Source of the DNA: Patescibacteria group bacterium
GTDB lineage: Bacteria > Patescibacteriota > Minisyncoccia > Phycocordibacterales > SIBU01
DNA: 64,000 bases
Assembly (NCBI GenBank): GCA_040390045.1
Contig: JAZJZC010000001.1
Span: 254,318 to 318,317, forward strand
Direction of reading: 5' to 3'
The position numbers and the translations under genes are program-made. The notes under the pieces are model-generated. The model was not told where the DNA came from. It ran no database searches and worked only from the letters and a program-made list of their open reading frames with translations. This document shows, piece after piece, positions 2 to 20,091 of the stretch; within the stretch, counting starts at the first letter, position 1; each line of letters starts with the position of its first letter.

Positions 2-54
2 AATTTGGTGAAGTTTGCGTATTAGCAAACCAAGCCAATTTTCACTACGGGATG
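2..54 (+). promoter_or_regulatory. conserved ~53-nt 5' leader motif (copy 1) ending at the fcl start codon
   Basis: AATTTGGTGAAGTTTGCGTATTAGCAAACCAAGCCAATTTTCACTACGGGATG is nearly identical to 6879..6931. Confidence 0.6.
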
Positions 55-981
55 GAAAAAAATTCCAAAATTTATGTTGCTGGACACCGAGGACTGGCGG
101 GGTCGGCAATAGTTCGCAAACTGATTGCTGAAGGCTTTACGAACCTCGTGCTCAAAACGCGATCTGAACTCGACCTTCTCGATCAAAAAGCTGTCGCTCA
201 ATTTTTCGAAAAGGAAAAACCGGAATTTGTTTTTTTGGCAGCCGCGAAAGTCGGCGGCATCATGGCGAATAACACCCACCCCGCAGAATTTATTTATGAA
301 AATTTGGTGGTTCAAACAAATGTCTTGCACGCGGCTCAAAAAAACAACGTGCAAAAATTAGTATTCCTTGGAAGTTCCTGCATCTACCCGCGTCTCGCTC
401 CGCAACCAATCAAAGAAGAATATTTTTTGTCAGGACCTCTGGAGCCAACAAATGAAGCCTACGCCGTGGCGAAAATTGCCGGCATCGTGACTTGCCAAGC
501 CTACCGAACAGAATATGGCTCAAATTTTATTTCAATTATGCCAACCAACCTGTACGGACCAAATGACAATTTCGATCTAGAAAATTCTCATGTCTTGCAA
601 GGATTGATTCGCCGATTCCATGAAGCCAAAGAAAGCGGGGCGCAGACAATTACCCTGTGGGGGACGGGCACCGCGCGACGAGAACTCCTTCAAGTTGATG
701 ATTTTGCCACCGCCGCACTGTTCCTCATGCAAAATTACAACAGCGGAGAGATTATCAACGTAGGCACGGGTACTGACATTTCCATAAAAGAACTTGCTGA
801 AAGCGTGAAAAAAATTGTTGGATTTTCTGGTGAAATTTTGTGGGACACAACGAAACCCGACGGTATGCCAAGAAAACTTCTCGATGTTTCTAAAATTCAC
901 AAACTCGGCTGGAAACATTCCGTTGCCCTCGAGGACGGCATCCATGACACATACGAATGGTATGTCAAAAACGTAAAGTAA
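52..981 (+). CDS. fcl: GDP-L-fucose synthase (GDP-4-keto-6-deoxy-D-mannose 3,5-epimerase/4-reductase)
   Basis: 309 aa; N-terminal KIYVAGHRGLAGSAI Rossmann motif, SSCIYP and YAVAKIAG catalytic region typical of Fcl/WcaG; ATG at 52. Confidence 0.85.
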   Translation: MEKNSKIYVAGHRGLAGSAIVRKLIAEGFTNLVLKTRSELDLLDQKAVAQFFEKEKPEFVFLAAAKVGGIMANNTHPAEFIYENLVVQTNVLHAAQKNNVQKLVFLGSSCIYPRLAPQPIKEEYFLSGPLEPTNEAYAVAKIAGIVTCQAYRTEYGSNFISIMPTNLYGPNDNFDLENSHVLQGLIRRFHEAKESGAQTITLWGTGTARRELLQVDDFATAALFLMQNYNSGEIINVGTGTDISIKELAESVKKIVGFSGEILWDTTKPDGMPRKLLDVSKIHKLGWKHSVALEDGIHDTYEWYVKNVK

Positions 982-997
982 AAAATGAAAAACTAAA

Positions 998-1816
998 ATG
1001 AAGACGTTAATTATTAAACCAAAAAAAACTTTCAGCCTTGAGGACATCAGGGAAGTTTGGCGTTACAAAGAGCTGCTGGTTTTTTTCGTTTGGCGCGATA
1101 TCAAAGTTCGCTACAAACAAACCATTGTCGGCATCGGCTGGGCAATTTTCCAACCGTTTATGACCATGGTTGTGTTTAGCGTTTTCTTCGGCAAACTGAT
1201 TCAAGTGCCTTCGGACGGCATTCCCTATCCAATTTTCGTCTACACTGGACTTTTATTTTGGCAACTATTTGCATCTGCGTTAGGCGATACTTCCAACTCA
1301 CTTATTTCCAACTCAGCCATCATCACCAAAGTATATTTTCCTCGAATAATTTTACCCCTCGCTGATACTGCCAACAAATTCGTGGATTTTTTCTTTGCCA
1401 GTTTGGCTCTCATTTTCTTAATGTTCCACTATGGATATATTCCAGATCTCGCTGGAATTCTTTTGATCCCCGTACTGCTTATAATTACTTCTGCTACGGC
1501 AGTAGGTGCAGGACTGGTGCTCGCGTCAATCAACGTGAAATACCGAGACGTCAGATATATTCTGCCATTTTTTATGCAACTGTTGCTTTTTCTCACACCC
1601 GTTATTTACCCTTCAAGTATCGCTGGAAAATATAGTTGGATCCTTTCGCTCAACCCAATGACAGGCGTGATCAAAGCGGCACGAGCAGGTATTCTCGGCA
1701 CAGGGCCTATTGGGTGGAATTCCCTGGCAATTTCAGCCTTCATGGCAGTGGTATTTTTAAGTATTGGAATTTATTTATTCAAAAAAACTGAACGATATTT
1801 TGCCGATATTGTATAA
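998..1816 (+). CDS. wzm: ABC-2 type polysaccharide/O-antigen export permease (Wzm/TagG-like)
   Basis: 272 aa, about 6 TM segments, typical N-terminal region of ABC-2 permeases; directly upstream of an ABC ATPase. Confidence 0.75.
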   Translation: MKTLIIKPKKTFSLEDIREVWRYKELLVFFVWRDIKVRYKQTIVGIGWAIFQPFMTMVVFSVFFGKLIQVPSDGIPYPIFVYTGLLFWQLFASALGDTSNSLISNSAIITKVYFPRIILPLADTANKFVDFFFASLALIFLMFHYGYIPDLAGILLIPVLLIITSATAVGAGLVLASINVKYRDVRYILPFFMQLLLFLTPVIYPSSIAGKYSWILSLNPMTGVIKAARAGILGTGPIGWNSLAISAFMAVVFLSIGIYLFKKTERYFADIV

Positions 1817-1820
1817 ATGT

Positions 1821-3086
1821 ATGGACCCTATAATTACTATAAAAAATATTGGTAAGCGCTATAACATCACCGGAAGAAAAGGTGGGTATGTTGCCCTGCG
1901 AGATATTTTCTCTGAGTATGTGCGACATCCGTATAGGAGTTTGAAGCACATCGTGAAATACATTCTCGGAAAAAATCGCAATGAAGTTTTTTGGGCACTG
2001 AGAGACATTAATTTCACCGTCGAAAAAGGCGAAGCCATCGGAATCATTGGACCAAACGGCGCCGGCAAATCAACCTTGCTCAAAATTCTCTCGAGAATTA
2101 CTCCGCCAACAGAGGGTGAGATTCGCATTCAAGGTAGAGTCGCATCGCTTCTCGAGGTAGGAACAGGCTTTCATCCGGAACTTTCTGGCCGCGAAAATAT
2201 TTATCTCAACGGCGCCATTTTAGGCATGACTCGAAAAGAAATTGCTGGAAAAATAGATCAGATCATCGAATTTTCCGGAGTGTCACAATTCATTGATACT
2301 CCGGTTAAACGCTATTCATCCGGAATGTACGTTAGGCTAGCCTTCGCCATCGCGGCCCATATTGAACCTGACATTTTAATCGTTGACGAAGTGCTTGCCG
2401 TCGGCGACGCTGAATTCCAAAGGAAATGTCTCGGCAAAATGGATGAAGTGACTCGCGTTGGGCATCGAACAGTAATTTTTGTCAGTCACAATATGGATGC
2501 TATTAGTAGACTCTGTACCAAAACCATCCTTCTCGATAAAGGAAAAATAATTGCCGCCGGAGACACCGATGAAGTCATCGGAAAATATTTGAGCGCCGGA
2601 TACAATTCTGCCACACACCTGCCATTCCCTATTAAAGATCGAGAAGTAAATTTGCATAGCTATTCAGTACAGCAGGATGGAAACGAAACCCTAACCATTG
2701 CGGGCGAGAAACCTTTCAAAGTGCACGTGGATTTTTCAATTGAAAAAATGCTGCGTTCGTTCAGAGCGGGAATCTTCGTAAAAAATATTATGGGCACCGT
2801 CATTACGAGAACTTTTGTGCAAGACTACGCCCGTGAGTTAGAAGAAATCGCTCCGGGAAGATACCGCGCGGCAATTGAAATCCCTCCGGGACTTTTGATG
2901 ACAGGCGAATACCACCTTGAGCTTAAAATTTTCTGCCTTGGTATCACCAATTTCTTTGAAGACGAACACATTGAAAAAAATATCACGGTGTATTCACCAA
3001 AAAATTATAACGAGGTTCGCTCAAAAAATACCGACCTCCGAGGTTACTTTTTAATACCAAGTAAGTGGGAAACAAAAAAGGAGTAA
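1821..3086 (+). CDS. wzt: ABC transporter ATP-binding protein, Wzt/TagH-like, with C-terminal carbohydrate-binding-type extension
   Basis: Walker A GPNGAGKST, signature YSSGMYVRLAFA, Walker B ILIVDE; about 170 aa C-terminal extension; start taken at ATG 1821 (MDPIITIKNIGKRY). Confidence 0.75.
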   Translation: MDPIITIKNIGKRYNITGRKGGYVALRDIFSEYVRHPYRSLKHIVKYILGKNRNEVFWALRDINFTVEKGEAIGIIGPNGAGKSTLLKILSRITPPTEGEIRIQGRVASLLEVGTGFHPELSGRENIYLNGAILGMTRKEIAGKIDQIIEFSGVSQFIDTPVKRYSSGMYVRLAFAIAAHIEPDILIVDEVLAVGDAEFQRKCLGKMDEVTRVGHRTVIFVSHNMDAISRLCTKTILLDKGKIIAAGDTDEVIGKYLSAGYNSATHLPFPIKDREVNLHSYSVQQDGNETLTIAGEKPFKVHVDFSIEKMLRSFRAGIFVKNIMGTVITRTFVQDYARELEEIAPGRYRAAIEIPPGLLMTGEYHLELKIFCLGITNFFEDEHIEKNITVYSPKNYNEVRSKNTDLRGYFLIPSKWETKKE

Positions 3087-3093
3087 CCTCGTC

Positions 3094-4200
3094 ATGACGA
3101 ACGATTCAAAAAAATTAATCCGAGTGAAGGTCTCAACTTCAAGTCCTGCCGTGCCTCACATTAAAACGACACCGGGCTCCAAAGGAGTTGTTGGAAATTT
3201 CCAATTTTTCATCGATCAGGATGTGAAAGACGTCGATTGGTGGGTGGTGGTGGACGGATTTCCACAAAAAGAAACTGCTTCGTGTCCAAGAGAAAATACC
3301 ATTCTCATCACTCAGGAAACCGAAGTGGTCAAAACCTACAGCCAAAAATACATTGATCAATTCCATTGGATAATTACTAGCCAGCAAACTCTCAAACACC
3401 CGAGGCAAATTTTCACCCAACAAGGCCATCAATCCTATCTGTTTCTGAGGCGGCGAGAAGCGGGGCAAAGCCTCGAAAGTTTTCAAGCACAATTTAAAAC
3501 CTACGACGAGCTCCGCGCTCAAACGCCCGCTGACATTCCAAAATCCAAATTGCTCTCAACGGTTATTTCTCAAAAATTACGCACAGAAGGTGCTCAAGCG
3601 CGACACCATTTTGTGATGGAATTACGGAAACACTTCGGTGATCGGTTTGATATTTTCAGTAATAAACTCGCAGACAACAGTCAAAATGTTTTTGGTCCGG
3701 AAGCCAAAACCACGCCCTACAAATGGGATGCGGTTGCGCCATATAAATATTTGCTTTCGATTGAAAACAGTTACGCTCCGAACTGGTGGACCAATCACCT
3801 CTTCGACGGCTTCATCGCTGGCGCCTACCCTATTTTTTACGGCCATCCATCTGTGTTTAATTATTTCCCAAAAAATTCTCTCACCTTAATCGACATCAAT
3901 GATCTTCCCGGATCAATCGCCACCATCGAAAGGGTTTTCTCAGAAAACTATTTTGAGAAATACCAAAAAGAAATTTGGGAGGCACGAAGACTTGTCTTGG
4001 ATAAATATTATCTGTTCGGCATGTTGGCTGAAGAAATAGCAAAACTTCCCGCTGGAAAAAATCCAACACGCATTACTCTTTTCCCCGAGCAGAAACCGTG
4101 GCTGAAGAAAAAAATTGTTGAAACATTGCGCGGAAAAGGAGTGTTATATACCATACCAAGGAAGTTATATAGAATGTATCGAAAAATCCGTTATGATTAA
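3094..4200 (+). CDS. putative fucosyltransferase (GT10-like C-terminal domain)
   Basis: C-terminal KYLLSIENSYAPNWWTNHLFDGFIAGAYPIFYGHPSVFNYFPKNS resembles the GT10 alpha-1,3/4-fucosyltransferase motif (K-F/Y-x-L-S-x-E-N-S ... IPIYWG-x-P); AAAAGGAG RBS before the ATG. Confidence 0.5.
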   Translation: MTNDSKKLIRVKVSTSSPAVPHIKTTPGSKGVVGNFQFFIDQDVKDVDWWVVVDGFPQKETASCPRENTILITQETEVVKTYSQKYIDQFHWIITSQQTLKHPRQIFTQQGHQSYLFLRRREAGQSLESFQAQFKTYDELRAQTPADIPKSKLLSTVISQKLRTEGAQARHHFVMELRKHFGDRFDIFSNKLADNSQNVFGPEAKTTPYKWDAVAPYKYLLSIENSYAPNWWTNHLFDGFIAGAYPIFYGHPSVFNYFPKNSLTLIDINDLPGSIATIERVFSENYFEKYQKEIWEARRLVLDKYYLFGMLAEEIAKLPAGKNPTRITLFPEQKPWLKKKIVETLRGKGVLYTIPRKLYRMYRKIRYD

Positions 4201-4876
4201 AAATAAAAAAATTGTGGCGCTCATACCTTTGCGCGGAGGGTCAAAATCAATCCCGTACAAAAATATAAAAAACTTAGGAGGAAAACCTCTGGCTTTTTGG
4301 GTATGCCAAGCGGCTTTAGAATCAAAATACATTGATGCGGTGTATGTTTCGACTGAGGATGAAAAAATTAAAAAAACTATTGAAAATCTCAAACTTCCTA
4401 TAAAAATTATAGACCGACCGGAAAACCTAGCGACCGATGTTGCAACTGACGAAGCGGTCCTATTGCATGCGATACAGGAAATTAAATGTGACATCTTGAT
4501 TGACCTCCACGCCACTCACCCTTTGACTGACGCATCACATTTGGATTCCGCTCTGGAAAAGTTTGTTAAAGGGGGTTATGATTCGATGCTTACAGGAGTG
4601 CTATTTAAAAACTTCTACTGGACACGAGAAGGTGTGCCGCTCAATTACAATCCCTTGAAAAGACCGATGCGACAACAGTGGGAAGGCACGGTGACCGAAA
4701 ATGGCGCGTTTTACATCACAACTCCAGACACGCTCCGAACGCACGGAAATTTTTTAGGAGGAAAAATAGGCATTTATGAAATGCCGAAGGACATCTACGT
4801 TGATATCGATGAACCGTCGGACTGGGAAAAGGCGGAAAAAATGTTCGCTTTAAAAAAGGTGACCAAAAACGATTAA
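4193..4876 (+). CDS. neuA: acylneuraminate cytidylyltransferase family protein (CMP-nonulosonic acid synthetase)
   Basis: N-terminal KIVALIPLRGGSKSIPYKNIK motif of CMP-NeuAc/CMP-KDO-type cytidylyltransferases; start at ATG 4193 overlapping upstream stop. Confidence 0.7.
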   Translation: MIKNKKIVALIPLRGGSKSIPYKNIKNLGGKPLAFWVCQAALESKYIDAVYVSTEDEKIKKTIENLKLPIKIIDRPENLATDVATDEAVLLHAIQEIKCDILIDLHATHPLTDASHLDSALEKFVKGGYDSMLTGVLFKNFYWTREGVPLNYNPLKRPMRQQWEGTVTENGAFYITTPDTLRTHGNFLGGKIGIYEMPKDIYVDIDEPSDWEKAEKMFALKKVTKND

Positions 4877-4894
4877 AAAATTAGCGCACAAAGC

Positions 4895-6790
4895 ATGAAA
4901 AATAAAACCATAAAAATAGGCGATCGAATAATTGGGGAGAACCAGCCAGCCTTTATTATTGCCGAAGCTGGCATCAACCACAACGGCCATATTGAATTGG
5001 CAAAAAAATTGATTGATCTTGCGGTTACCGCCAGGGCTGACGCCGTAAAATTTCAGATGCGGGATTTTAAAACTCTCTACACCGATAATGCCTGGAACAA
5101 CACGAAACATGAAGATATTGCTTCGCAGTATGTTTTATCGCTCATTCGTGAATCGGAACTCTCTTTTGATAATTTTAAAGAACTTTCTCGATACGCCAAA
5201 TCAAAAGGAATTATATTTCTCTGTACGCCGTTTGACGTCGCGAGCGTTGATGCTTTGGAAAAATTGGGCGTACCTGCGTATAAGGTTTCGAGTGGTGACA
5301 TGGTGAATTTTGAATTACTTGAATATATCGCCAGCAAAAACAAACCGATGCTTCTTTCGACCGGTATGTCCACCTTCGACGAAATAGAAAAAACCGTCAA
5401 ACACTTGGATACTCTTGGCGCCGAATATATTTTGCTTCATTGCAACAGCACCTACCCAACCCCCGGAAAGGATATTAACCTTCGATTTATTCAGATTCTT
5501 AAAGAAAAGTTTGGCGGCATTGTCGGCTATTCCGGACATGAATTGGGAATTGCGGTAAGCACTGCGAGCGTCGCCCTAGGTGCCAAAGTAATCGAGCGCC
5601 ATATTACTCTTGATCACACCATGAAGGGGCCCGACCACGCAGTCAGTCTTGAACCAGCCGGCATCGTCAAACAAGTTCGAGATATTCGCTATCTCGAGTT
5701 GGCCTTACAAGGTGATAAAAAATTCATCACTTCAGGAGAATTCATGAATCGTAAAATTATGGGCAAAAGCCTGGTGGCTAAAGCCGCCATTAAGAAGGGC
5801 GATACGATTACCCGTCAAATGGTAATCGCCAAAAGTCCCGCCAAAGGTCTTTCTCCACAAAAATTGTACGAACTTGTTGGCACCAAAGCCCTTCGGGATA
5901 TTCCGAAGGAAGGTTACTTTACTGAAGAGGATTTAGGCAAAAAAAAGATTGATAGAACTTTTTCCTCAAACAGAAAGTGGGGGCTCATTGTCCGCCCACA
6001 TGACTTTGAAGAGATGATCGAGGGTCTTAAGCCTTCATTTGTAGAGTTCCATTTCAGTTCACATGACTTAAAAAATCCGATTGTCCTCAAAGATCATCCC
6101 GAACTAGAACTGATTGTTCATGCGCCTGAACTCTGGGGAGATGAGCTGCTTGATTTTTCTTCAACTGATCCTGCCACCATTAAACATTCAATTAAATACA
6201 TCAATGACCTCTTGAACACTGTCCGTTCAATGCGTAAACATTTTGGGAAAACTCCTCCAAAAGTAAAAGTGGTGCTTCACCCGGGTGGCATGAGTTTCGA
6301 TCAATTTGTTACAAAAAGTGAGCGCGCAAAAATGTACACCAAGCTCGGTAATGCTTTGAAAAAAATTGATCAAACCGGCATCGAGCTTCTCTTGGAAAAT
6401 CAAGCTCCCCTGCCATGGTATAAAGGCGGATCGTGGTTTTCCAACACCTTCATTGACGCCGATGAAATATTTGAGTTTGCGAAAAAACACGGCTTCAGTC
6501 TCTGTTATGATAGTAGCCATGCGCAGTTGTACTGCTCATTAGCCAAAAAAGATCCGATTGAATACTTCAAAACTCTGAAACCCTTGGTTAAACACGTTCA
6601 CCTCTCTGACGGCATCGGTACTGACGGTGAGGGCATTCAAGTAGAAGAAGGTGATGTGCCGTGGAAATTACTCATGCCGGAAATCCTAAAAACGGATACA
6701 ACAATCGCCCCAGAAATCTGGATGGGACACCGCAACAATGGCGAAGGGTTTATTACAGGACTCAAACGACTGAAAAAATATGGGTTATAA
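4895..6790 (+). CDS. neuB: N-acetylneuraminate synthase family (NeuB/PseI/LegI) fused to a C-terminal sugar-phosphate isomerase/epimerase-like (xylose isomerase-like TIM barrel) domain
   Basis: The N-terminal ~330 aa (FIIAEAGINHNG, then a SAF-like domain GKSLVAKAAIKKGDTI) match NeuB; the C-terminal ~300 aa (HAPELWGDELLDF..., HPGGMS..., LLLENQ..., YDSSHAQLY) look like an AP-endonuclease-2/xylose-isomerase-like TIM barrel. Confidence 0.65.
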   Translation: MKNKTIKIGDRIIGENQPAFIIAEAGINHNGHIELAKKLIDLAVTARADAVKFQMRDFKTLYTDNAWNNTKHEDIASQYVLSLIRESELSFDNFKELSRYAKSKGIIFLCTPFDVASVDALEKLGVPAYKVSSGDMVNFELLEYIASKNKPMLLSTGMSTFDEIEKTVKHLDTLGAEYILLHCNSTYPTPGKDINLRFIQILKEKFGGIVGYSGHELGIAVSTASVALGAKVIERHITLDHTMKGPDHAVSLEPAGIVKQVRDIRYLELALQGDKKFITSGEFMNRKIMGKSLVAKAAIKKGDTITRQMVIAKSPAKGLSPQKLYELVGTKALRDIPKEGYFTEEDLGKKKIDRTFSSNRKWGLIVRPHDFEEMIEGLKPSFVEFHFSSHDLKNPIVLKDHPELELIVHAPELWGDELLDFSSTDPATIKHSIKYINDLLNTVRSMRKHFGKTPPKVKVVLHPGGMSFDQFVTKSERAKMYTKLGNALKKIDQTGIELLLENQAPLPWYKGGSWFSNTFIDADEIFEFAKKHGFSLCYDSSHAQLYCSLAKKDPIEYFKTLKPLVKHVHLSDGIGTDGEGIQVEEGDVPWKLLMPEILKTDTTIAPEIWMGHRNNGEGFITGLKRLKKYGL

Positions 6791-6878: not shown

Positions 6879-6931
6879 AATTTGGCGAAGTTCGCTTCAC
6901 AGCAAACAGAGCCAATTTTCACTACGGGATG
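6879..6931 (+). promoter_or_regulatory. conserved leader motif (copy 2) ending at the TylF-like methyltransferase start codon
   Basis: AATTTGGCGAAGTTCGCTTCACAGCAAACAGAGCCAATTTTCACTACGGGATG. Confidence 0.6.
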
Positions 6932-8292: not shown

Positions 8293-9172
8293 TCCTTTTG
8301 CTACCATGAGAACCGTCTTAAAAAAAATCCCGATACTAGGAAACCTTTTAAAAAAAACTGGTGATATCCGCCGTGCCATAAAAGACTCCTTTAATTCCTA
8401 CAATTTTTACCGACGTTACAAAAAAATTCTTAGGGCGAACGAGGTCATGGCTGGAAGCGCAAGGAATAAACGCGTCTTCATACTAGCAACTGGCCCCTCA
8501 ATCAAATCACAAAATCTTTCGATACTGAAAGACGAAATCTGCATCAGTGTCAGTAATTTTTTTGTCCATCCGGATTTTAAAACCATCCTTCCTAAATATC
8601 ACGTATTTGCCCCATCACACGACCCAATTCCAGACTCTCAGATTGTCCTCTGGTTTGCTGACGCCGAAAAACATTTCCCTGAAGGCCAAGAAGTTTTTGT
8701 GGCACTTCACGACAAATTCTTGGTAGATGGAAATAATCTTTTTAAAAAACAAAAAGTTCGGTACTATCAGATTGATTACGCCCGCAAAGGAAAAATTGAA
8801 AAAATAGATTTCACCAAACGTATTCCAGCCATTCAAACCGTGGCCCATCTCGCTACCTACCTTGGTTTGTATTTAGAACCTCAGGAATTATATCTTTTAG
8901 GAGTTGATCACGATTGGATATTGCATATCGACAAAGGTAGACATTTTTATGAAGAAGAAAAAAGTGTACTTGTCCAAGGCATTCCCCAAAAATCCCCAGT
9001 TCAAAAAGATCTAGAAGATGAGTTCCGAAACTATCTCAATTTATGGCATCTATATAAAAATATTCGCGCCTACGCCGCTAGCCACGGAGTAAGCATTAAA
9101 AACGCCACTCCGGGCTCTTTACTCGACGTGTTCCCGCGAGTGAACTTGGAAACTCTTTTCGAGCGTAAATAA
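8270..9172 (+). CDS. DUF115 / MptE-like (Maf-like) protein, putative nonulosonic-acid transferase
   Basis: VFILATGPSIKS and LLGVDHDW motifs resemble the 6-hydroxymethylpterin diphosphokinase MptE-like/motility-accessory-factor family; start uncertain (8270 or 8306). Confidence 0.45.
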   Translation: MASAIKTNPFATMRTVLKKIPILGNLLKKTGDIRRAIKDSFNSYNFYRRYKKILRANEVMAGSARNKRVFILATGPSIKSQNLSILKDEICISVSNFFVHPDFKTILPKYHVFAPSHDPIPDSQIVLWFADAEKHFPEGQEVFVALHDKFLVDGNNLFKKQKVRYYQIDYARKGKIEKIDFTKRIPAIQTVAHLATYLGLYLEPQELYLLGVDHDWILHIDKGRHFYEEEKSVLVQGIPQKSPVQKDLEDEFRNYLNLWHLYKNIRAYAASHGVSIKNATPGSLLDVFPRVNLETLFERK

Positions 9173-9177
9173 TTTTT

Positions 9178-10836
9178 ATGAACCAGAAACCTCTTTCACT
9201 CTCCGATCCAATCAGTTTCGTCATTCCGGGCTTCAATTGCGCCTCAACAATTCTTGAGTCTATTGAATCGATCATTGATGGTAACTGGACAGAAGGAGAT
9301 GAACTTATCATCGTGAACGATGGATCAACTGACAACACTGAAAACGTGCTTGCCGAAGCTAAGAAAAAATATCCGTTTATTAAAGTTTTCAATGAAAAAG
9401 AAAACCGTGGCTGCCCTGCGGCCCGAAACATCGGCTACACGCATGCCAGTCACGAAATTATCTTCAACCTTTATTCTGACGATGTGTTAGTCCCTGGAAG
9501 TGTGGCAAAACTAAAAGAGTACATGATCTCCGAAAATGCCGACATTGCCGGTTTTGAAGAATATCGCTATTTTAAAGAAGAAAAAAATGGCAAGAAAAAA
9601 ATTACTCATCGTTGGATGTGTAGACCGGGAGTTTTATCGCTACCAGATTTTCTCGCAGGCGATATAAACCCAGGGCCAGGGGGAAACTTCATGTTCATTA
9701 AACAAATCTGGAAAGATGTTGGCGGTGTTTGGGAATATGGAAAAGGTATGCACGAAGCCTGGGGTTTTACACTTAAATGTCTTATGGCAGGAGCCAAGTT
9801 TGTCGTCATGCCAAAAAGTTTTTACTTTCACCGATACGGCAGTAATTCCCTCTTTGTTCGCGAAGCCGAAAAAGAAAATGAGGTGTCACTCATGGCAACC
9901 AAAATGATTACGCCGTACCTCGATCGACTAGAACCAAGCGACAAGGCTTACATCCAAAGTGAGGAAGGCAGCAAAAATTGGTACAGCTCACTTGACCGCG
10001 CTCCCATTCGACTTAAAGGCGAACCGTTCGGTAAAACGGGTGTTATTGTTGTGGCAACTGACGCTCGATTAAAAACTCTGGTCTTGAGAAAAATTAAAAT
10101 TGCCTACCCTATCTATCGACGCGCTAAGGCCTTACTCTCACGAACCAAATCCTACGTTCGGTTTATCAAACAATTCAAATCGTTTCAAAAATCAAATTCT
10201 CGATTTGTAATGAGCTGGAAAGAACACCGAGCTTTTTTACGAGACGCCGATAAAAATTTTAGTTTTGATCGCCACTATGTCTACCATCCGGCATGGGCAG
10301 CGCGTGTCTTAAAAGAAACCAGCCCCCAAGAACATGTTGATATTTCATCGACCGTTCACTTTTGTTCAATCGTCTCAGCTTTTATTCCGGTGAAATTTTA
10401 CGACTATCGAAAAACTGATATCCGGCTCTCAGGCCTCTCTTGTGGCGAAGCTGACTTATTGAAATTACCCTTCGAATCAAACAGCCTTCAATCACTTTCC
10501 TGCATGCACACCATAGAGCACATTGGCCTTGGCCGCTATGGCGATCCAATAGACCCTGATGGAGATCTTAAAGCCGTTGCCGAACTAACTCGAGTATTGG
10601 CAAAAGGTGGCACACTTTTATTCGTAGTACCAATTGGAAAACCGAAAATTATTTTCAATGCCCACAGAATTTATTCGTATGATCAAATTCTTACCGCTTT
10701 CAAAACTTTGACCTTGAAAGAATTCTCTCTAATTCCAGAAAAACAATCAGCCGGTGGAATTATAAAAAATGCCACGAAAGAAAGAGCCGATCAGGAAGAC
10801 TACGGCTGCGGTTGTTTTTGGTTTACAAAATCGTAA
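9178..10836 (+). CDS. GT2 glycosyltransferase fused to a DUF268-like putative methyltransferase domain
   Basis: N-terminal IIVNDGSTDNT...DDV is GT2-like; the C-terminal HTIEHIGLGRYGDPIDPDGD region resembles DUF268/class I methyltransferase-like domains. Confidence 0.55.
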   Translation: MNQKPLSLSDPISFVIPGFNCASTILESIESIIDGNWTEGDELIIVNDGSTDNTENVLAEAKKKYPFIKVFNEKENRGCPAARNIGYTHASHEIIFNLYSDDVLVPGSVAKLKEYMISENADIAGFEEYRYFKEEKNGKKKITHRWMCRPGVLSLPDFLAGDINPGPGGNFMFIKQIWKDVGGVWEYGKGMHEAWGFTLKCLMAGAKFVVMPKSFYFHRYGSNSLFVREAEKENEVSLMATKMITPYLDRLEPSDKAYIQSEEGSKNWYSSLDRAPIRLKGEPFGKTGVIVVATDARLKTLVLRKIKIAYPIYRRAKALLSRTKSYVRFIKQFKSFQKSNSRFVMSWKEHRAFLRDADKNFSFDRHYVYHPAWAARVLKETSPQEHVDISSTVHFCSIVSAFIPVKFYDYRKTDIRLSGLSCGEADLLKLPFESNSLQSLSCMHTIEHIGLGRYGDPIDPDGDLKAVAELTRVLAKGGTLLFVVPIGKPKIIFNAHRIYSYDQILTAFKTLTLKEFSLIPEKQSAGGIIKNATKERADQEDYGCGCFWFTKS

Positions 10837-10839
10837 AAA

Positions 10840-11832
10840 CTATTTTCTTCGAGAGCTTTTCTTTTTTTGAGCGTTCTTTTTAAAAACTAAAATGTTGTAG
10901 TATTTTTCGGCTGAAAATGAAAATTTCGGACCGATATTCTCGTCGAGTTCTTCGAGAATGGATTCGATACTCCCTTTCGGCTTAAACCCTAAAATTTTCT
11001 TGGCTTTGTCGATCAACACTTTGTAGTTACGTTTATCCGGAACATTTTTCACTTCAACTTCCAATTTCTTGCCGTGTTTCTCCGCAAAATGTTTGCGAAT
11101 TTTTTCGCCGACTTCTCCGACAGTGAAGTTACCTGAAGAAATATTGAAAATGCCACTGACCGAAAGTGGTGCAGAAACCGCGAGCACATAGGCGTCTACC
11201 GCGTCCGCAATCGTAAGAATCGGCCTCCAAATACCTGGGTTATTCACCGTAATCTTTCCGATCGTCTGTGCCTTCATGTACATCGTGTTGACGATAAGAT
11301 CAAAACGCATGCGTGGACTCCATCCGGAAATGGTACCTTTGCGCAAACTGATTACTGAAAAATTTTCATCTTGAAAATACATCACACCAAATTCCCCTTT
11401 TCGTTTTGAAATACCGTAGGGATACAAACTGGTTGCTACGTCCTCCTCATGTAGTGGTTTGTTGTCAGTGAAACCGTACACCGAACCGGAACTGGCGTAG
11501 ATAAAACGCCCGACGCCCGCGAGTTTCGCAACGTAGGCAAGATAGGCTGGAGCCGCGCCGTTGTAAATAAAATTTTGGGACGGCGAAAATTCCGCCATCG
11601 GATCATTCGATAATCCCGCCAAAAAAATCACTTGGTCAAATCCTTTCAAACTCTCAACATCAATATCGAAAACATCTTTCTTAATGACCGGTACGGATTT
11701 TGGCAAATTATTACCAAACCACAATAAATCGAGCACTGTAACTTTATGGCCTTCTTGCAAGAGTTTAGGCACAAGTCGTGAACCGACATAGCCTGCGCCA
11801 CCGGCTACTAAAATTTTTTGTTTAGCGGACAT
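10840..11832 (-). CDS. NAD-dependent epimerase/dehydratase (extended SDR) family protein
   Basis: KILVAGGAGYVGS Rossmann motif, YPYGISK catalytic YxxxK. Confidence 0.65.
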   Translation of the reverse strand: MSAKQKILVAGGAGYVGSRLVPKLLQEGHKVTVLDLLWFGNNLPKSVPVIKKDVFDIDVESLKGFDQVIFLAGLSNDPMAEFSPSQNFIYNGAAPAYLAYVAKLAGVGRFIYASSGSVYGFTDNKPLHEEDVATSLYPYGISKRKGEFGVMYFQDENFSVISLRKGTISGWSPRMRFDLIVNTMYMKAQTIGKITVNNPGIWRPILTIADAVDAYVLAVSAPLSVSGIFNISSGNFTVGEVGEKIRKHFAEKHGKKLEVEVKNVPDKRNYKVLIDKAKKILGFKPKGSIESILEELDENIGPKFSFSAEKYYNILVFKKNAQKKKSSRRK

Positions 11833-13081
11833 TTAAAGTTTTGAAAAATTCTTCAAATGAATTGATCAAGTGCTTCATATGTGGATCGAGCAGACCATGA
11901 TTGCATCCGATAAGAAATCCGTTGCGCATAATGTTGTCAGCCACAGGGTACCCACCGGTGAGTTTCTTGGCCTCGATATTTCTAAATCCAGGCTGGCGTA
12001 AAATGTTTCCGGTAAAAATTGGTCGTGTTTGAATATTTTTCTCTTCCAGAAACTTAGTAATCTCCATTCGAGTAAACGGCGCTCCATCACGAATGGTCAG
12101 TGGAAAGGCGTGCCAAAAAGTTTCCGCTTTAGGGTGAGCTTTCGGCATTACAAAAAAGTCTTCATACTTTTTGAAAAAATCCAAAAGCATCTTGGCATTT
12201 TTTCTGCGGCGAGCAACAAATTGAGGAAAACGTTTCAATTGCTCAAGACCAAAAGCGGCGTTAATTTCTGTCGATTGAAAGTTATAACCAAGTTCGCTAA
12301 AAACAAATTTAGCATCGTACGGCATGCCATCGAGATCTCCGGTAAAACGTTTCTTGAGTTCTTCAGACTTTTCGTAAAAACCAAAGAGCGTTGATTCTCG
12401 TCCCCAGTTGGCTTTGATCAGGGCCTTCTTAGCTAGGGCACCATCGTGAAATGACACCAAGCCTCCTGCGCCAGCAGTTGTAATAACATGCGCCGCATAG
12501 AAACTCGTGGTAGAAATGTCAGAGTAGGTTCCGGTTGGACGCCCAGCAAACTTTGCACCAAGCACGTCACATGAATCTTCAATAAACCAAAGTTTGTGCT
12601 TCCGTGCAAAAGCCTGGAGCTTCCCGAGATCCGCCATATTTCCCATAAGCGAGGGAATCATAATTGCCTTAGTTTTTTTAGTGACCAAACTCTCCATTTG
12701 ATCGAGATTTATCTGATAGGTTCCTTCTACGACGTCGGCGAAGGCTGGTACCAAACCAAGTTGAACCAAGGGAGCGACGGTGGTTGCAAAGGTTAAAACC
12801 GGAGTAATAACTTCACTGCCACGTGGCAAATTAAGCGTATCAATTGCTAAAAAATTGGCTGAAGATCCGGAGTTGAGCAGGATGCCAAATTTCTTCCCAA
12901 ACATTTTGGAAATTTTCTGCTCGAAATCGCGGACTCGTGGACCGCTGGCAATTTTGGTTGGATCCTTCAAAACATCATTTACAGCCTTGATTTCTTCCTT
13001 TCCGTAGACAGTTAAAAGGTATGGAACTCGAATGTCTTTATGTTTCATATAATTTTGCGTAATCATAGCAAAAGGGTGCAT
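11822..13081 (-). CDS. PLP/PMP-dependent 4-keto-6-deoxy-sugar 3-dehydratase, ColD/RfbH(E1) family
   Basis: DegT-fold protein whose usual PLP lysine is replaced by His (SFYAAHVITTAGAGG, compare ColD SFYSHHIATMEGG); the C-terminal GLEQLKRFPQFVARRRKNAKML and TRPIFTGNILRQPG strongly resemble ColD; ATG at 13081 chosen (ORF track begins at a TTG). Confidence 0.7.
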   Translation of the reverse strand: MHPFAMITQNYMKHKDIRVPYLLTVYGKEEIKAVNDVLKDPTKIASGPRVRDFEQKISKMFGKKFGILLNSGSSANFLAIDTLNLPRGSEVITPVLTFATTVAPLVQLGLVPAFADVVEGTYQINLDQMESLVTKKTKAIMIPSLMGNMADLGKLQAFARKHKLWFIEDSCDVLGAKFAGRPTGTYSDISTTSFYAAHVITTAGAGGLVSFHDGALAKKALIKANWGRESTLFGFYEKSEELKKRFTGDLDGMPYDAKFVFSELGYNFQSTEINAAFGLEQLKRFPQFVARRRKNAKMLLDFFKKYEDFFVMPKAHPKAETFWHAFPLTIRDGAPFTRMEITKFLEEKNIQTRPIFTGNILRQPGFRNIEAKKLTGGYPVADNIMRNGFLIGCNHGLLDPHMKHLINSFEEFFKTLNVR

Positions 13082-13137
13082 CCTTTTCAATGAAATGCTT
13101 TTCCGAGGATTTTCTGAAAAAAATTATAAAATTTGCA

Positions 13138-14151
13138 CTAATATTTTCCTAAAACTTTTGAATCAATGTCAGCAATTTCAGATCGCCCCGTAAACAACAT
13201 CGCTCGTTTCAGTTCTGAAGAAAATTTGTTGAAAGTCGTTTCCACACCCTTTTTTCCACCACCAATAACGCTGTAAAGCATTGAACGTCCAACAAGAACC
13301 GCATCGGCTCCAAGAGCCAAGTACACGAACACGTCGTAACCGTTTTTCACTCCCCCGTCCACCAGAATTTTTATTTTTCCTTTCAATTTCTTAGCAATGA
13401 GCGGCAAAATATCCGCCGTCCCTAAAGAATAATCGATTGACCTACCACCATGATTGGAAATCACAATCGCATCGAAACCACTTTTGTATGCAATCACAGC
13501 ATCTTCAACACTCATAATACCTTTTAAAAACATCGGGCCAGAAAAGAGTTGCCGTATTTTTTTTAATTCTTTCGCATCTTTTCGAGTAACCTGCCCAGTT
13601 TCTAAAAGTTTCCCCGCCGCGCCATCAAGATCAATCCCTATCGCGGTCACCCCTGCCTTTTTTAATTTTTCAATTCTTTCTTTGAGTTTCTCAAAATTTC
13701 TTGGCTTGCACACAGCGATTCCACCAACACTTTTTATTAAATCCGGCACAAGATACTCCGAACTGGTATCAAAACCATCGCCGCACATACCGAGTGTGCC
13801 AGCATCTTTAGAGCCTTCGAGAATCGCTTGATGAAAATCTTTTTCTTTTATAAAGTCTTTTAAGCTAGTTTTAATTCCGCCCATCGAAGCTGGCAAAATA
13901 GGAAATGCTAATTTGACGCCGAAAAGTTCCACAGAGGAGTCCGGTGTAAAATGCTTGCCAAGCAAACAAATTTTAATAAAATATTTTGCGAGAGCTTCTC
14001 GATTTCGCAAAAATGTCACGCCGCCACCAACCGCACCGAGCCCCGGCACACCCGCTTCAAGAATTTTTCCACCATATTCTCCGGAAGACTCGACAATTCC
14101 TTGTTTTGCCAAAATATCTTTACCTTTTTTTATAATTTCTTCGGAGGTCAT
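13138..14151 (-). CDS. FMN-dependent alpha-hydroxy-acid dehydrogenase-family oxidoreductase
   Basis: IVISNHGGRSID and VDGGVKNGYDVFVYLALGADAVLVGR motifs of FMN-dependent TIM-barrel oxidoreductases; start at ATG 14151. Confidence 0.55.
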   Translation of the reverse strand: MTSEEIIKKGKDILAKQGIVESSGEYGGKILEAGVPGLGAVGGGVTFLRNREALAKYFIKICLLGKHFTPDSSVELFGVKLAFPILPASMGGIKTSLKDFIKEKDFHQAILEGSKDAGTLGMCGDGFDTSSEYLVPDLIKSVGGIAVCKPRNFEKLKERIEKLKKAGVTAIGIDLDGAAGKLLETGQVTRKDAKELKKIRQLFSGPMFLKGIMSVEDAVIAYKSGFDAIVISNHGGRSIDYSLGTADILPLIAKKLKGKIKILVDGGVKNGYDVFVYLALGADAVLVGRSMLYSVIGGGKKGVETTFNKFSSELKRAMLFTGRSEIADIDSKVLGKY

Positions 14152-14152
14152 A

Positions 14153-15112
14153 TTAAAAACCGAACTTTTTAAAATGTTCGATCGTGCGGTCAAGGCCTGC
14201 ATGAAGAGAAACTTTTGGTCGCCAGGAAAAATGGGAAAAGGTTTCCGTCATGTCTGCCTGCCAAACATCACTGTCATAAGAAACAGAACGAAATGTTCCC
14301 CACTTCACTTCACTTTTAGATTGGGTTTTTTGAAGAATGTGAGAGACGACATCTCCGATTGAGGTTCGAACGCCAGAGCCAATATTAAAAATTTCTCCTT
14401 TATATTTTTCCGCTTTATCAGCCGCCTCGAGCAAGAGCTCAACAACATCCGAAACAAAAACAAAGTCGCGCGACACCGTCGGCCGAGTCAGAGCAATTTC
14501 TTTACCGGCTAATGCCTGAGCAATAATTTTTGAGGTCAGTCTTTCTTTTTCATTGGCTGGACCGTACGGAGTAAAAAGTCTCAAGGTTACAATAGGCTTG
14601 TTCTGCGCTCGAGCCAAAGCTTGTCCGTACAGCGTAGCGGCAAGTTTGGTGACACCATACAACTCTCCAGGCTGACAAATTTCCGATTCAGCGATCGGAT
14701 GATCTTTAAAACCATACTCGAGAAAACTGCCCATGCTCACAAAAAAATCGTACGGTAGAGATGCAGTCGCTTCAAATAAGTTTATAGTCCCTAAAACATT
14801 TGTCGCAATAATCGTTCCATTATCCGCCCCCACACCACTGACCACACTTGCCACACCAAGATGAAAAATTCCTTTTGGCTTAATTTTTTTTACAATTTTC
14901 TCAATCGAAGCTTTGTCAGAAAGATCACCGTGATGAACAGAAATTTTAGAGATGATGCCTTCAAGTCGCCAAAAATTTGAAGCGGGACGAGCTAAAACAT
15001 GCACCTCGAAACCGCGCTCGACAAGTGCGTGCACCAAGTGAGACCCAACGAAACCCGTCCCGCCGGTCACGAGAATTGGACCGCTTAATTTAAATTTTGA
15101 AATCTCTGACAT
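14153..15112 (-). CDS. NAD-dependent epimerase/dehydratase (SDR) family protein
   Basis: ILVTGGTGFVGSHLV, YGVTK catalytic motif; ATG at 15112 (ORF track begins at an upstream TTG). Confidence 0.65.
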   Translation of the reverse strand: MSEISKFKLSGPILVTGGTGFVGSHLVHALVERGFEVHVLARPASNFWRLEGIISKISVHHGDLSDKASIEKIVKKIKPKGIFHLGVASVVSGVGADNGTIIATNVLGTINLFEATASLPYDFFVSMGSFLEYGFKDHPIAESEICQPGELYGVTKLAATLYGQALARAQNKPIVTLRLFTPYGPANEKERLTSKIIAQALAGKEIALTRPTVSRDFVFVSDVVELLLEAADKAEKYKGEIFNIGSGVRTSIGDVVSHILQKTQSKSEVKWGTFRSVSYDSDVWQADMTETFSHFSWRPKVSLHAGLDRTIEHFKKFGF

Positions 15113-15156
15113 AGAAGTCTCAATAGAGTAACACAAGTCTCAAAATTTAGAATAGA

Positions 15157-15195
15157 AAACTGCCCCGATTCGCCTTGCGAATCGGGGCAGTTTTC
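15157..15195. repeat. perfect palindromic hairpin AAAACTGCCCCGATTCGC-CTTG-GCGAATCGGGGCAGTTTT in a divergent intergenic region
   Basis: 18-bp perfect inverted repeat with a 4-nt loop and A/T runs on both sides; the core CCCGATTCGC...GCGAATCGGG is shared with the hairpin at 28796-28838. Confidence 0.7.
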
Positions 15196-15259
15196 TTGAC
15201 AATCTTATTAATTCGTGCTAATAATATTCCAGATTCCGCAAACAAAAGAAGTTCAAAAA

Positions 15260-15784
15260 ATGAAAAAAACCGGTTTAACGACCGCAGAGGCCGAAACCCT
15301 CGCCGAACTCCTCACCAAAGCCAAATTCCCCCTCCCCAAGGAAGTCTTCGACGCCTGGACAGAGACCCTTCCCACCGGGGCTTTCGAGCTCTGCATCACT
15401 CGAAAAACTTCTGATGGCCTTGAAGTTTTCATGCTCCAGCGGCCCGGAGATGACAAGCACTGGCCGTTTGAATGGCACATACCCGGAACAGTCCTACGAG
15501 ACAAAGACACCTACCCGAAACTCTTTGGCCGCCTGATGAAAAGTGAAATTGGTGGCGGAAATTTCGGGAAACTCCGCCCTGTCGGAACTCGCATTTTTCC
15601 GAAGGGCGAAGGTCTGTACCGGTGTCGCCGTGGCCACGAAACCGCCCTACTTTACACAGTGGAGTTTCTCAAGGGAACCACTCCGGACAACGGCTGCTGG
15701 TTTCCAATCGACCAGCTCCCTAAAAACACTGTCTCCTTCCACCACACCCTCGTGGCGATGGTTCGGAAACATCTTGGGGTCTGA
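15260..15784 (+). CDS. hypothetical protein (GC-rich island)
   Basis: ORF with markedly higher GC than its surroundings; an intrinsic terminator follows it; no confident family assignment. Confidence 0.4.
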   Translation: MKKTGLTTAEAETLAELLTKAKFPLPKEVFDAWTETLPTGAFELCITRKTSDGLEVFMLQRPGDDKHWPFEWHIPGTVLRDKDTYPKLFGRLMKSEIGGGNFGKLRPVGTRIFPKGEGLYRCRRGHETALLYTVEFLKGTTPDNGCWFPIDQLPKNTVSFHHTLVAMVRKHLGV

Positions 15785-15802
15785 GCCAACCTCACATCAC
15801 AC

Positions 15803-15837
15803 GAAGACTTGCACCTTTTGGAGCAAGTCTTTTTTAT
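15803..15837 (+). terminator. Rho-independent terminator
   Basis: GAAGACTTGC-ACCTTTTGGA-GCAAGTCTT stem-loop followed by TTTTTATTT. Confidence 0.6.
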
Positions 15838-15856
15838 TTGAGTTATACTTATTGTC

Positions 15857-16714
15857 ATGATTATCATCAAAATCGAAGGGGGGCTGGGCAATCAGATGTT
15901 CCAATACGCGCTCGGGCGCAATCTGTCTCTGACTCACGGAAAAAACTTTAAAATCGACACCTCCTATCTACGAAAAAATAATCAAAGTGGCAGAACCTTT
16001 AGACTCAGCGGATTTAAAATTGTTACGACCGAAGCCACCAAAACCGAAATCAATCGCTACCGTTCGACATTAGAGAAATTTTTCGACCGTATTCGCCCGC
16101 GACCAAACAAGAAAAAAGTGCTTGAACTCAGCAACACCTTCGATCCTGAGGTTTTGAAACGCACCGATGGCTATCTTGTCGGCCACTGGAACGACGCGCG
16201 GTATTTCGAAAGTTCTGAAAATACCATTCTCGAAGATTTCAAACTACAGAAACCATTCGGAGCGGCGGCGGAAAAAATGGCCAGTTTTATTTTTGCCCAA
16301 CCAGAAGCCGTTAGTGTCCACATTCGCCGCGGAGACTATGTCTCAATTCCAAAAATCGCTGACGTCCACGGCGCTCTCCCACTTTCCTACTACGCCGAAG
16401 CCTGCGAAATCATCATGAAGAAAAAACCAAACGCTCATTTTTTCATCTCTTCAGATGATATTGCATGGGCCAAGAAAAATTTTCCTCCACACTACCCCGC
16501 CACATTCATTTCCGATCCAGAAATTCCTGATTACGAAGAAATGACACTCATGAGTTTGTGCAAACATCACATCATTGCCAATTCTACTTTCAGTTGGTGG
16601 GCAGCCCGACTCAATCAGAAAAAAGAAAAAATAATTATTGCTCCAAAAAATTGGTTTCGAGATACCTCGAAAGACGCGAGCAATCTAATTGCCAAAAACT
16701 GGATTCAAATTTAA
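15857..16714 (+). CDS. GT11 alpha-1,2-fucosyltransferase
   Basis: N-terminal IIIKIEGGLGNQMFQYA and HIRRGDY motifs are diagnostic of GT11 FutC/WbsJ-type fucosyltransferases. Confidence 0.8.
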   Translation: MIIIKIEGGLGNQMFQYALGRNLSLTHGKNFKIDTSYLRKNNQSGRTFRLSGFKIVTTEATKTEINRYRSTLEKFFDRIRPRPNKKKVLELSNTFDPEVLKRTDGYLVGHWNDARYFESSENTILEDFKLQKPFGAAAEKMASFIFAQPEAVSVHIRRGDYVSIPKIADVHGALPLSYYAEACEIIMKKKPNAHFFISSDDIAWAKKNFPPHYPATFISDPEIPDYEEMTLMSLCKHHIIANSTFSWWAARLNQKKEKIIIAPKNWFRDTSKDASNLIAKNWIQI

Positions 16715-20086: not shown

Positions 20087-20091
20087 AAACC

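Follow-up and report, generated by a model that had tools for sequence, protein, structure and literature searches.

The closest described analogues of the locus reported here appear to be operons for fucose-containing O-polysaccharides that depend on an ABC transporter, as in Rhizobium tropici, and not the lipopolysaccharide (LPS) genes of Helicobacter pylori. The locus lies in a 64-kb stretch of DNA (the window: GenBank assembly GCA_040390045.1, contig JAZJZC010000001.1, positions 254,318 to 318,317, forward strand) from a metagenome-assembled genome (MAG) labelled as a Patescibacteria group bacterium, and our main subject is a GT10-like glycosyltransferase (GT) encoded in it (GT10L, 3094-4200). 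In R. tropici CIAT 899 an ABC-transporter-dependent fucose-containing O-polysaccharide is encoded by a wzm-wzt-gmd-fcl-GT cluster, and the terminal residue read by Wzt may be added by a GT (PMC12595478). The window is like the R. tropici operon in holding together wzm, wzt with a carbohydrate-binding module, GDP-fucose genes and several GTs, and it has nonulosonic acid genes in addition to the Rhizobium-type set. The Rhizobium fucosyltransferase WrtF is a GT-A/GT2-like enzyme, unlike GT10L (PMC12595478). A relative of GT10L is encoded in a Rhizobium locus (L075), in the order gmd-fcl-GT11-wzt-GT10L. Patescibacteria are not known to make LPS, and therefore the acceptor or anchor of their glycan must differ from that of Rhizobium.

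The GT10 enzyme FucT/FutA of H. pylori (HpFucT; structures 2NZW/2NZX/2NZY and 5ZOI) binds GDP-fucose through N240, Y246, E249 and K250. K250 and R195 neutralise the phosphates, with the K250A and R195A mutants being inactive, and E249 makes hydrogen bonds to the ribose and the fucose and stabilises the transition state (PMC7826918). In AtFUT11 the pyrophosphate is held by S218/N219, R226, N271 and K281, and the guanosine by S218, K256 and E280 (PMC12929593). HpFucT has the GT-B fold in common with GT10L and is its best structural and profile match, and the two also have in common a Y-K-[FY]-x-L-x-[FI]-E-N-[ST] core, P-I-[YF]-[WY]-G, an Arg (R195 in HpFucT, R170 in GT10L), an Asn (N240 and N225, respectively) and a basic, helical C-terminal tail. 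GT10L is unlike HpFucT in its sequence (13-14% identity) and in having N234/H235 in place of E249/K250, and no heptad-repeat region or N-terminal similarity was detected in it. Its context is a Wzm/Wzt operon, whereas that of HpFucT is a set of Lewis-antigen LPS genes.

The first 22 kb of the window (1-22 kb) are densely coding and belong to a large surface-glycan locus of Patescibacteria, of which they are the left part. The original prediction for this DNA had read the presence of fcl (52-981), GT10L and a GT11 gene (15857-16714) in one locus of a candidate phyla radiation (CPR) bacterium as a potential for Lewis-antigen-like fucosylation. We found all three to be intact open reading frames (ORFs), and the CPR origin is borne out both by the label of the MAG and by an identical GT10-like protein recorded under the same name. 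Proteins identical to the GT10-like and GT11 products have been deposited for a 323,682-bp contig of a "Patescibacteria group bacterium" MAG, where NCBI names them "hypothetical protein" and "alpha-1,2-fucosyltransferase", respectively. Apart from the GT10 protein, whose donor site is remodelled, the genes are new members of known families. Window ORFs were scanned with Pfam and NCBIfam profiles and the scores compared to curated or gathering cutoffs. Genomic loci containing relatives of the GT10-like gene were searched for with a 15-sequence alignment as the query and are referred to by L-numbers (L001, L002 and so on).

Family and fold of the GT10-like protein

The original prediction had called the C-terminal domain of this protein GT10-like. 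GT10L does pass the corresponding Pfam profile, if barely and only over residues 150-270 (PF00852: E = 2.5e-05, 24.4 bits vs a gathering cutoff of 23.9). Despite this marginal score the assignment to the GT10 family is solid, because three further lines of evidence agree. Most of the 46 homologues which we found carry PF00852. A 30-sequence family profile compared to the PDB matched GT10 chains only, at E = 1e-15 to 1e-10, including HpFucT (5ZOI/2NZW, E = 1e-15), AtFUT11, FUT9 and mango FT13. An AlphaFold2 model of GT10L (pLDDT 91.3, pTM 0.86) is a two-domain GT-B structure for which Foldseek ranks 1-15 were all GT10 enzymes (2nzx at E = 2.5e-8, followed by 7yro and 8d0o, with 9s6a also among the top matches).

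Identity to the solved GT10 enzymes, including HpFucT and FUT9, was 13-15%, with sequence similarity confined to the C-terminal (donor) domain; the N-terminal (acceptor) domain gave no sequence match to HpFucT or FUT9. The subfamily to which GT10L belongs comprises 2,512 representatives of 50% clusters at E ≤ 1e-3, from many phyla. GT10L is a full two-domain GT-B member of this large, separate prokaryotic GT10 subfamily. The C-terminus consists of basic and aromatic helices, and it is probably through the basic ones that the protein associates with the membrane.

The donor site

At its donor site GT10L reads S-I-E-N-S-Y-A-P-N-W-W-T-N-H. This retains E-N-S, the aromatic residue and T, and has Asn in place of Glu and His in place of Lys. 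It does not contain the alpha-1,3-fucosyltransferase motif ending in Y-x-T-E-K. All five solved GT10 structures have E-K (E249/K250 in HpFucT, E280/K281 in AtFUT11) where GT10L has N234-H235. The pocket has also changed at three other positions (N160 to Q, H167 to A and C251 to H) and contains a new G-H-P.

Other residues are retained in a hidden Markov model (HMM) alignment to the solved GT10 enzymes, namely S159, R170, K210, E224, N225 and T233. R170, N225 and S159 align to phosphate-binding residues of AtFUT11/HpFucT and K210 to a guanosine-binding residue; the Arg, Ser and Asn which bind pyrophosphate are thus all found (R170, S159 and N225, opposite S-N...R and E-N in FUT9 and AtFUT11), with the Asn of the S-N pair being Q160. 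These residues and E75 are invariant or nearly so in a set of 194 sequences. E75 itself is invariant in the set and follows a beta-strand of the N-terminal domain; its candidate counterpart, the catalytic Glu of the N-terminal domain (HpFucT E95, AtFUT11 E158), lies outside the profile alignments to these enzymes, which cover the C-terminal domain only.

We then compared the motif between relatives. T/S-E-K was found in 73 of 79 genomic relatives, and the six exceptions are all Patescibacteria genes just downstream of wzm-wzt. Five of these directly follow wzt, and in L003 a GT4 gene lies between. The variants include T-N-H in L002 and L004, which are the nearest to the window, T-D-K in L003, T-T-N in L005 and T-S-D in L006; T-N-H was also found in the GT10L of L084. 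Within the 194-sequence set, the ~165 sequences outside the clade of the window all have [TS]-E-K, H167 and C/A251. In the ~29 clade members H167 is replaced by A/Q, E234 by N/S/T/D, K235 by H/D/N and C251 by H/D, with E75, R170 and N225 unchanged. At least 16 sequences, at 54-100% identity, share the N-H pair, and the clade members with a named source genome are all Patescibacteria with wzm-wzt adjacent (6/6).

This pattern suggests that the N-H motif is under purifying selection and that the pocket has been re-optimised and not decayed, because the new residues are conserved and co-vary with other pocket positions. The new element here is a small GT10 clade with a remodelled donor site, whose members come from Patescibacteria in every case with a named source. 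The clade may be regarded as a natural experiment on GT10 catalysis, in which a Glu-Lys pair considered essential for GDP-fucose binding and leaving-group stabilisation has been replaced concertedly. Either the donor is bound in an alternative way or the donor has changed, and a donor switch, if true, would be the first non-fucosyl GT10 activity.

We favour, with moderate confidence, the reading that GT10L still transfers a GDP-activated 6-deoxyhexose using a rewired donor site, since, E-K aside, the residues that bind the base and the phosphates are still present and the family is tightly linked to GDP-fucose synthesis. In this genome the sugar would be fucose, given the fcl gene in the operon. 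Gmd and Fcl would supply GDP-L-fucose, for which GT11 and the GT10-family enzyme are two candidate users, and the phosphate contact once made by Lys may have passed to His235 and/or His251. In pathways of this type the glycan is assembled on a lipid carrier on the cytoplasmic side of the membrane, for export by Wzm/Wzt, and the expected product is a polymer decorated with fucose, nonulosonic acid and methyl groups which carries no Lewis-type epitope. There is a precedent in the GT-A enzyme WrtF, which transfers fucose with no basic residues at the pyrophosphate (PMC12595478).

Several observations weigh against this reading. The Pfam score of GT10L is marginal, and the protein is without both of the residues whose HpFucT counterparts matter for catalysis (K250A has no detectable activity, and E249 acts on the transition state), so that a loss or change of function is possible. 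The gene is directly followed and overlapped by CMP-sugar or NeuB genes. There is no fcl in the visible loci of L002, L003, L007 and L084, and GDP-L-fucose is therefore not a universal partner of the clade; the MAG's own gmd is not in the recovered sequence of the 64-kb window. The literature which we searched gives no biochemical data on any member of the GT10L subfamily, and contains nothing on fucosyltransferases in Patescibacteria.

If function had been lost, GT10L would be a catalytically dead scaffold or carbohydrate-binding partner of Wzm/Wzt, and GT11 would be the sole fucosyltransferase. This would fit with the loss of residues whose alanine mutants abolish HpFucT activity, with the strict adjacency of GT10L to wzt in CPR genomes and with the heterogeneous replacements seen across sister clades (NH, SH, SD, SN, TN and DK). 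However, E75, R170, N225, E224 and K210 are invariant, and the conservation and co-variation of the new residues described above are not those of a decaying site. In addition, no GT11 was seen in the available sequence of L084 and L006, where the product of gmd would therefore be left without an obvious user if GT10L were dead. We regard a dead enzyme as very unlikely.

If function had changed, the T-N-H clade would no longer use GDP-fucose and could transfer another activated sugar made by the products of neighbouring genes. CMP-nonulosonic acid is one example, and the sugar might end the chain as a cap for recognition by the C-terminal domain of Wzt. Two donor contacts have been lost, the Glu that binds ribose/fucose and the Lys that binds the beta-phosphate, alongside three concerted pocket changes and the new G-H-P, and GT10L sits between wzt and the CMP-synthetase/NeuB genes with its stop overlapping the next start. 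A weak Wzt_C domain is present, and L002 and L084 have a T-N-H enzyme and gmd but no fcl. Bacterial GT-B sialyltransferases and 3-deoxy-D-manno-octulosonic acid (Kdo) transferases employ an "HP" motif, and in Klebsiella O12 Wzt recognises a beta-Kdo cap. Set against this, neither the guanosine contacts (K210 and S159) nor the phosphate contacts (R170 and N225) have changed, gmd is a conserved part of the operon and a separate candidate nonulosonic-acid transferase, the DUF115/MptE-like protein, accompanies the NeuB genes. In L003 and L006 the motif is a variant one, and no nonulosonic-acid genes follow within the 10 kb and 4.4 kb, respectively, of available downstream sequence (L006, with T-S-D, has gmd-fcl and lies on a 9-kb contig), and L007 keeps T-E-K yet has nonulosonic-acid genes. 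Motif state did not correlate strictly with the neighbouring genes, as neither fcl nor NeuB/CMP-synthetase perfectly tracks T-E-K vs variant motifs. On balance a switch of donor seems to us unlikely. The more specific proposal that a small GT10 subclade (T-N-H / T-S-D / T-T-N, with the new G-H-P) transfers a non-fucose sugar, for example from CMP-nonulosonic acid or another unusual nucleotide sugar, as a chain-terminating cap recognised by Wzt is one that we consider distinctly improbable.

The fcl operon

GT10L is encoded within an operon predicted to make an exported glycan, of which ten genes are visible on the + strand of the window:

52..981, +, fcl, GDP-L-fucose synthase, 309 aa (NCBIfam NF047922); the first operon gene visible in the window
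998..1816, +, wzm, ABC-2 type polysaccharide exporter permease (PF01061, E = 1.6e-15, 57.7 bits)
1821..3086, +, wzt, ABC exporter ATPase with a weak C-terminal Wzt_C domain (PF00005, 83.6 bits)
3094..4200, +, GT10-family GT-B glycosyltransferase, 368 aa (PF00852, 24.4 bits vs 23.9)
4193..4876, +, CMP-sugar (nonulosonic acid) cytidylyltransferase (PF02348, 99.3 bits; PseF-like TIGR03584, 101.5 bits, below cutoff)
4895..6790, +, fusion of a NeuB-type nonulosonic acid synthase and an AP_endonuc_2 TIM barrel (PF03102, 275 bits; PF08666; PF01261, 60 bits)
6929-7594, +, TylF-like O-methyltransferase (PF05711, 78.7 bits)
7594-8292, +, class I S-adenosylmethionine-dependent methyltransferase (PF13649 and PF08241)
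8270..9172, +, DUF115/MptE-like protein (PF01973, 26 bits, below the cutoff of 34.6)
9178..10836, +, fusion of GT2 and a DUF268/methyltransferase domain (PF00535, 98.9 bits; PF03269, 61 bits); the last + strand gene of the operon

The gaps between these ten genes are 16, 4, 7, -8, 18, 138, -1, -23 and 5 nt. The 8-nt overlap between the stop of the GT10-like gene and the start of the CMP-synthetase gene reads ATGATTAA, and AAGGAG lies 10 nt upstream of the GT10-like ATG. Promoter and terminator scans of the region gave matches at chance level, the best promoter-like match (15196-15225) being near the NUDIX-like ORF described below.

The ABC-2 permease and ATPase pair of Wzm/Wzt export is present. 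The wzm gene is 66-72% identical in CPR relatives, where it always adjoins wzt-GT10L, and the start of wzt was placed at the ATG at 1821, in agreement with the gene call of L001. The glycan-cap-binding domain Wzt_C (PF14524) is weak in wzt and scores below its cutoff (29.1 bits vs 30.4), and it is likewise weak in L001, L082 and L084. Because both wzm and wzt are present, the operon is predicted to encode an ABC-transporter-dependent glycan pathway, which would also make nonulosonic acid.

The nonulosonic acid genes resemble known pseudaminic/legionaminic acid pathways with Maf/DUF115 transferases in combining a NeuB-type synthase, a CMP-synthetase, a DegT protein, a LegB-like short-chain dehydrogenase/reductase (SDR) and a DUF115/MptE-like protein. 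Unlike in these pathways, NeuB is fused to AP_endonuc_2, and all of the nonulosonic-acid enzymes of the window score below equivalog cutoffs (for the NeuB domain, 345 bits on the NeuB_NnaB model against a cutoff of 399.65). The same fusion, of ~631-644 aa, was found in L082 (8213-10126) and L084 (10685-12595), and a 644-aa ORF in L005 (18117-20003) is a full-length tblastn match at 70% identity. The AP_endonuc_2 part is C-terminal and is a xylose-isomerase-like TIM barrel. Homologues of the DUF115 protein occur at the equivalent position in L002, L005, L007, L084, L085 and L086. A PDB sequence search with this protein gave no informative match, and we weakly assign it as a candidate nonulosonic-acid transferase.

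Two cases of GT2 fused to a C-terminal methyltransferase or DUF268 domain were found in the window, at 9178-10836 (+) and 46212-47771 (-). DUF268 is a separate gene in L084, where it adjoins GT2, and in L085 and L086, where it directly precedes GT11.

A recurrent Patescibacteria operon of the ABC-transporter type, with gmd-fcl-wzm-wzt-GT10-nonulosonic acid genes and GT11 further along, offers a concrete hypothesis for the composition of a cell surface which is poorly known and presumably in contact with a host.

Fcl and the position of gmd

The product of 52-981 is very likely Fcl. It matches the GDP-L-fucose synthase equivalog NF047922 over positions 2-305 of 308 (E = 1.2e-147, 491.3 bits vs a cutoff of 500), with the next-best NCBIfam model at 81 bits and Pfam Epimerase at 220 bits. 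It is 56-71% identical to fcl genes which adjoin gmd in related loci, and the fcl orthologues of relatives adjoin verified gmd genes.

That gmd is not obvious in the window, as the original prediction had remarked, is correct. Neither a scan with the gmd model nor tblastn with verified Gmd found one in the 64 kb, the best tblastn match being at 28% identity to a generic SDR. Two ORFs were considered as gmd and rejected: the PF16363-rich ORF at 39670-40731 is RmlB (447 bits on TIGR01181, only 62 bits on the gmd model) and is followed by rmlA and rmlD, and the ORF at 14153-15136 is a LegB-like SDR with only 58 bits on the gmd model. An SDR which follows the CMP-synthetase gene in L084 was considered as a relocated fcl and was also rejected, as no Fcl model matched it.

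The window starts just 51 nt before fcl. In L082, whose GT10L is 72% identical, the order is HTH_17-gmd-fcl-wzm-wzt-GT10L, and in L084 (GT10L 61% identical) it is HTH_17-gmd-wzm-wzt-GT10L. Including L002, L004, L005, L006 and L007, gmd was found directly upstream of (fcl-)wzm-wzt-GT10L in a total of seven relatives, two of which are among the closest. With TIGR01472, for which the cutoff is 415 bits, their gmd genes reach 513-564 bits. Further afield, gmd-fcl-GT10L are directly adjacent in at least nine Syntrophomonadaceae and other (deltaproteobacterial) loci. From the synteny in the seven relatives we infer that gmd most likely sits a short way beyond the left edge of the window, as the first gene of the operon, and we read its absence as an edge-of-window effect. 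The existence of a route to GDP-4-keto-6-deoxymannose, which the original prediction had left to be established, is thus largely answered by the relatives, although the window itself has no gmd.

A small HTH_17 gene (excisionase/MerR-like) lies directly before gmd in L082 (2667-2936) and L084 (4493-4741). At the head of the operon it may encode a regulator, and the arrangement predicts the content of the DNA further upstream of the window.

GT11 and its pairing with the GT10-family protein

The second fucosyltransferase-family gene lies downstream, in the following stretch of + strand genes:

15215..15784, +, weak NUDIX-like ORF before GT11 (PF00293, 20.7 bits vs a cutoff of 21.1)
15857..16714, +, GT11 alpha-1,2-fucosyltransferase-family enzyme, 285 aa (PF01531, E = 1.7e-29, 103.5 bits vs 23.9)
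16757..22157, +, SDR, GT2, sugar C-methyltransferase, SDR and GFO/IDH oxidoreductase, co-directional with GT11 (Pfam/NCBIfam)

The GT11 assignment made in the original prediction is upheld by a clear profile match, and both of the motifs on which it had been based (GGLGNQMFQYA and HIRRGDY) can be read in the translation, as can SSDD..W and ANSTFSWW. In its PF01531 domain and its HxRRGDY, GGLGNQMFQYA and ANSTFSWW motifs the enzyme is like H. pylori FutC and the E. coli O-antigen enzymes WbsJ/WbwK. Some members of GT11 reportedly use other GDP-deoxyhexoses, such as colitose. We found ~90 homologues at ≥50% identity, nearly all of the source-named ones being Patescibacteria, and a PDB sequence search returned no solved homologue. 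The NUDIX-like ORF has a homologue (30%) in L007 and could be a GDP-sugar hydrolase by analogy with Gmm/WcaH of fucose clusters.

The GT11-GT2-...-C-methyltransferase-SDR-GFO_IDH block has the same order in the window and in L085, and L086 carries a matching GT11-GT2-...-GFO_IDH block. The array of L082/L085, on one strand, runs gmd-fcl-wzm-wzt-GT10L ... DUF115-GLF-GT4-DUF5672-DUF268-GT11-GT2 ... C-methyltransferase-SDR-GFO_IDH. GT10L and GT11 were found in one cluster in L014 (Saccharibacteria), L075, L048, L072, L085 and L086, and GT11 is clustered with GT10L in at least three other CPR assemblies. The two genes are likewise adjacent or close together in Desulfobacteraceae, Rhizobium, Verrucomicrobia and a Bifidobacterium MAG. 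Since such pairs are found in several other loci, two fucosyltransferase-family enzymes per glycan cluster are a recurring and fairly ordinary bacterial theme. A protein with a weak or faint match to NodZ (the GT23 alpha-1,6-fucosyltransferase family) is encoded in the clusters of relatives (L082 14740-15735, L085 4280-5275 and L086 1-594) and may represent a third candidate fucosyltransferase.

Lewis-like mimicry in a CPR bacterium would be striking if true, but the evidence for it is insufficient. On the reading of the original prediction GT10 (alpha-1,3/4), GT11 (alpha-1,2) and Fcl would build Lewis x/y-like epitopes as in H. pylori, possibly for host mimicry or adhesion. The same three enzyme families are indeed present, the pairing of GT10L and GT11 is conserved in several CPR and non-CPR loci, and GT10 enzymes specialised for other acceptors retain latent activity on N-acetyllactosamine (LacNAc) (PMC12929593). 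The potential for a fucosylated surface glycan stands, given fcl, a well-supported GT11 and an enzyme of the GT10 family with the GT-B fold. The terms "Lewis-antigen-like" and "alpha-1,3/4-type" do not, as GT10L belongs to a separate subfamily, has 13-15% identity to HpFucT/FUT9 with no sequence match in its acceptor domain, and has lost the E-K dyad. Lewis x/y can be made only on LacNAc as the acceptor, and with defined linkages of the alpha-1,3/4 and alpha-1,2 types. No GT25 (beta-1,4-galactosyltransferase) or other recognisable LacNAc-building enzyme was found among the annotated ORFs of the window, where the Pfam/NCBIfam scans gave only GT2, GT4, GT10, GT11 and PMT_2, of which GT2/GT4 could have such activity. 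The context is that of a Wzm/Wzt polymer pathway with genes for nonulosonic acid, C- and O-methylation and carbamoylation, and the logic of the operon points to an exported polymer and not to the LPS outer-chain system of H. pylori. Taken together, we consider Lewis-type epitopes extremely unlikely, and a fucose-decorated polymer remains the reading that we prefer.

Remainder of the glycan locus

Between the operon and the NUDIX-like ORF lies a convergent block:

10840..15136, -, SDR, DegT-type aminotransferase, FMN-dependent alpha-hydroxy-acid dehydrogenase and LegB-like SDR (Pfam/NCBIfam)

L002 shares the SDR, DegT and SDR genes of this block, L007 and L084 share part of them, and the block probably encodes enzymes for amino-sugar/nonulosonic acid precursors. 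The LldD-like FMN dehydrogenase/oxidase (13138-14202, -; PF01070, 199 bits), which lies between DegT and SDR, is an unusual companion for nucleotide-sugar genes.

Elsewhere in the window the island contains GT2 and GT4 enzymes, three C-methyltransferases, a carbamoyltransferase, rmlBAD, two PMT_2 proteins and GtrA. The three sugar C-methyltransferases are paralogous (Methyltransf_13 zinc and Methyltransf_14 domains; 18896-20086, 27018-28415 and 42293-43540, all +) and suggest branched-chain or C-methylated deoxysugars. The carbamoyltransferase is of the NodU/CmcH type (Carbam_trans_N/C; 28836-30632, -), and its presence in the island implies a carbamoylated sugar. The PMT_2 proteins (ArnT/PMT-like GT-C; 34935-36404 and 47764-49146, both -) and the GtrA-like protein (49190-49648, -) are predicted to be machinery for membrane glycosylation at the outer face from polyprenyl-phosphate sugars.

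In L082 (10166-11860), L003 (12214-14050) and L085 (1-1400), and not in the window, transketolase-like genes that are split into N and pyrimidine/C subunits lie together with SDRs downstream of GT10L; they may take part in two-carbon branched-sugar chemistry. An ORF of the UDP-glucose/GDP-mannose dehydrogenase family (49648-50547, -, 299 aa) is missing the first ~70 positions of the N-terminal-domain profile and has no match to the C-terminal domain, and is possibly truncated or has a mis-called start. On the - strand at the right edge of the island (55110-57825) lie genes for a VirD4/TraD-like type IV coupling ATPase of 631 aa and, after it, a lamin-tail-domain protein.

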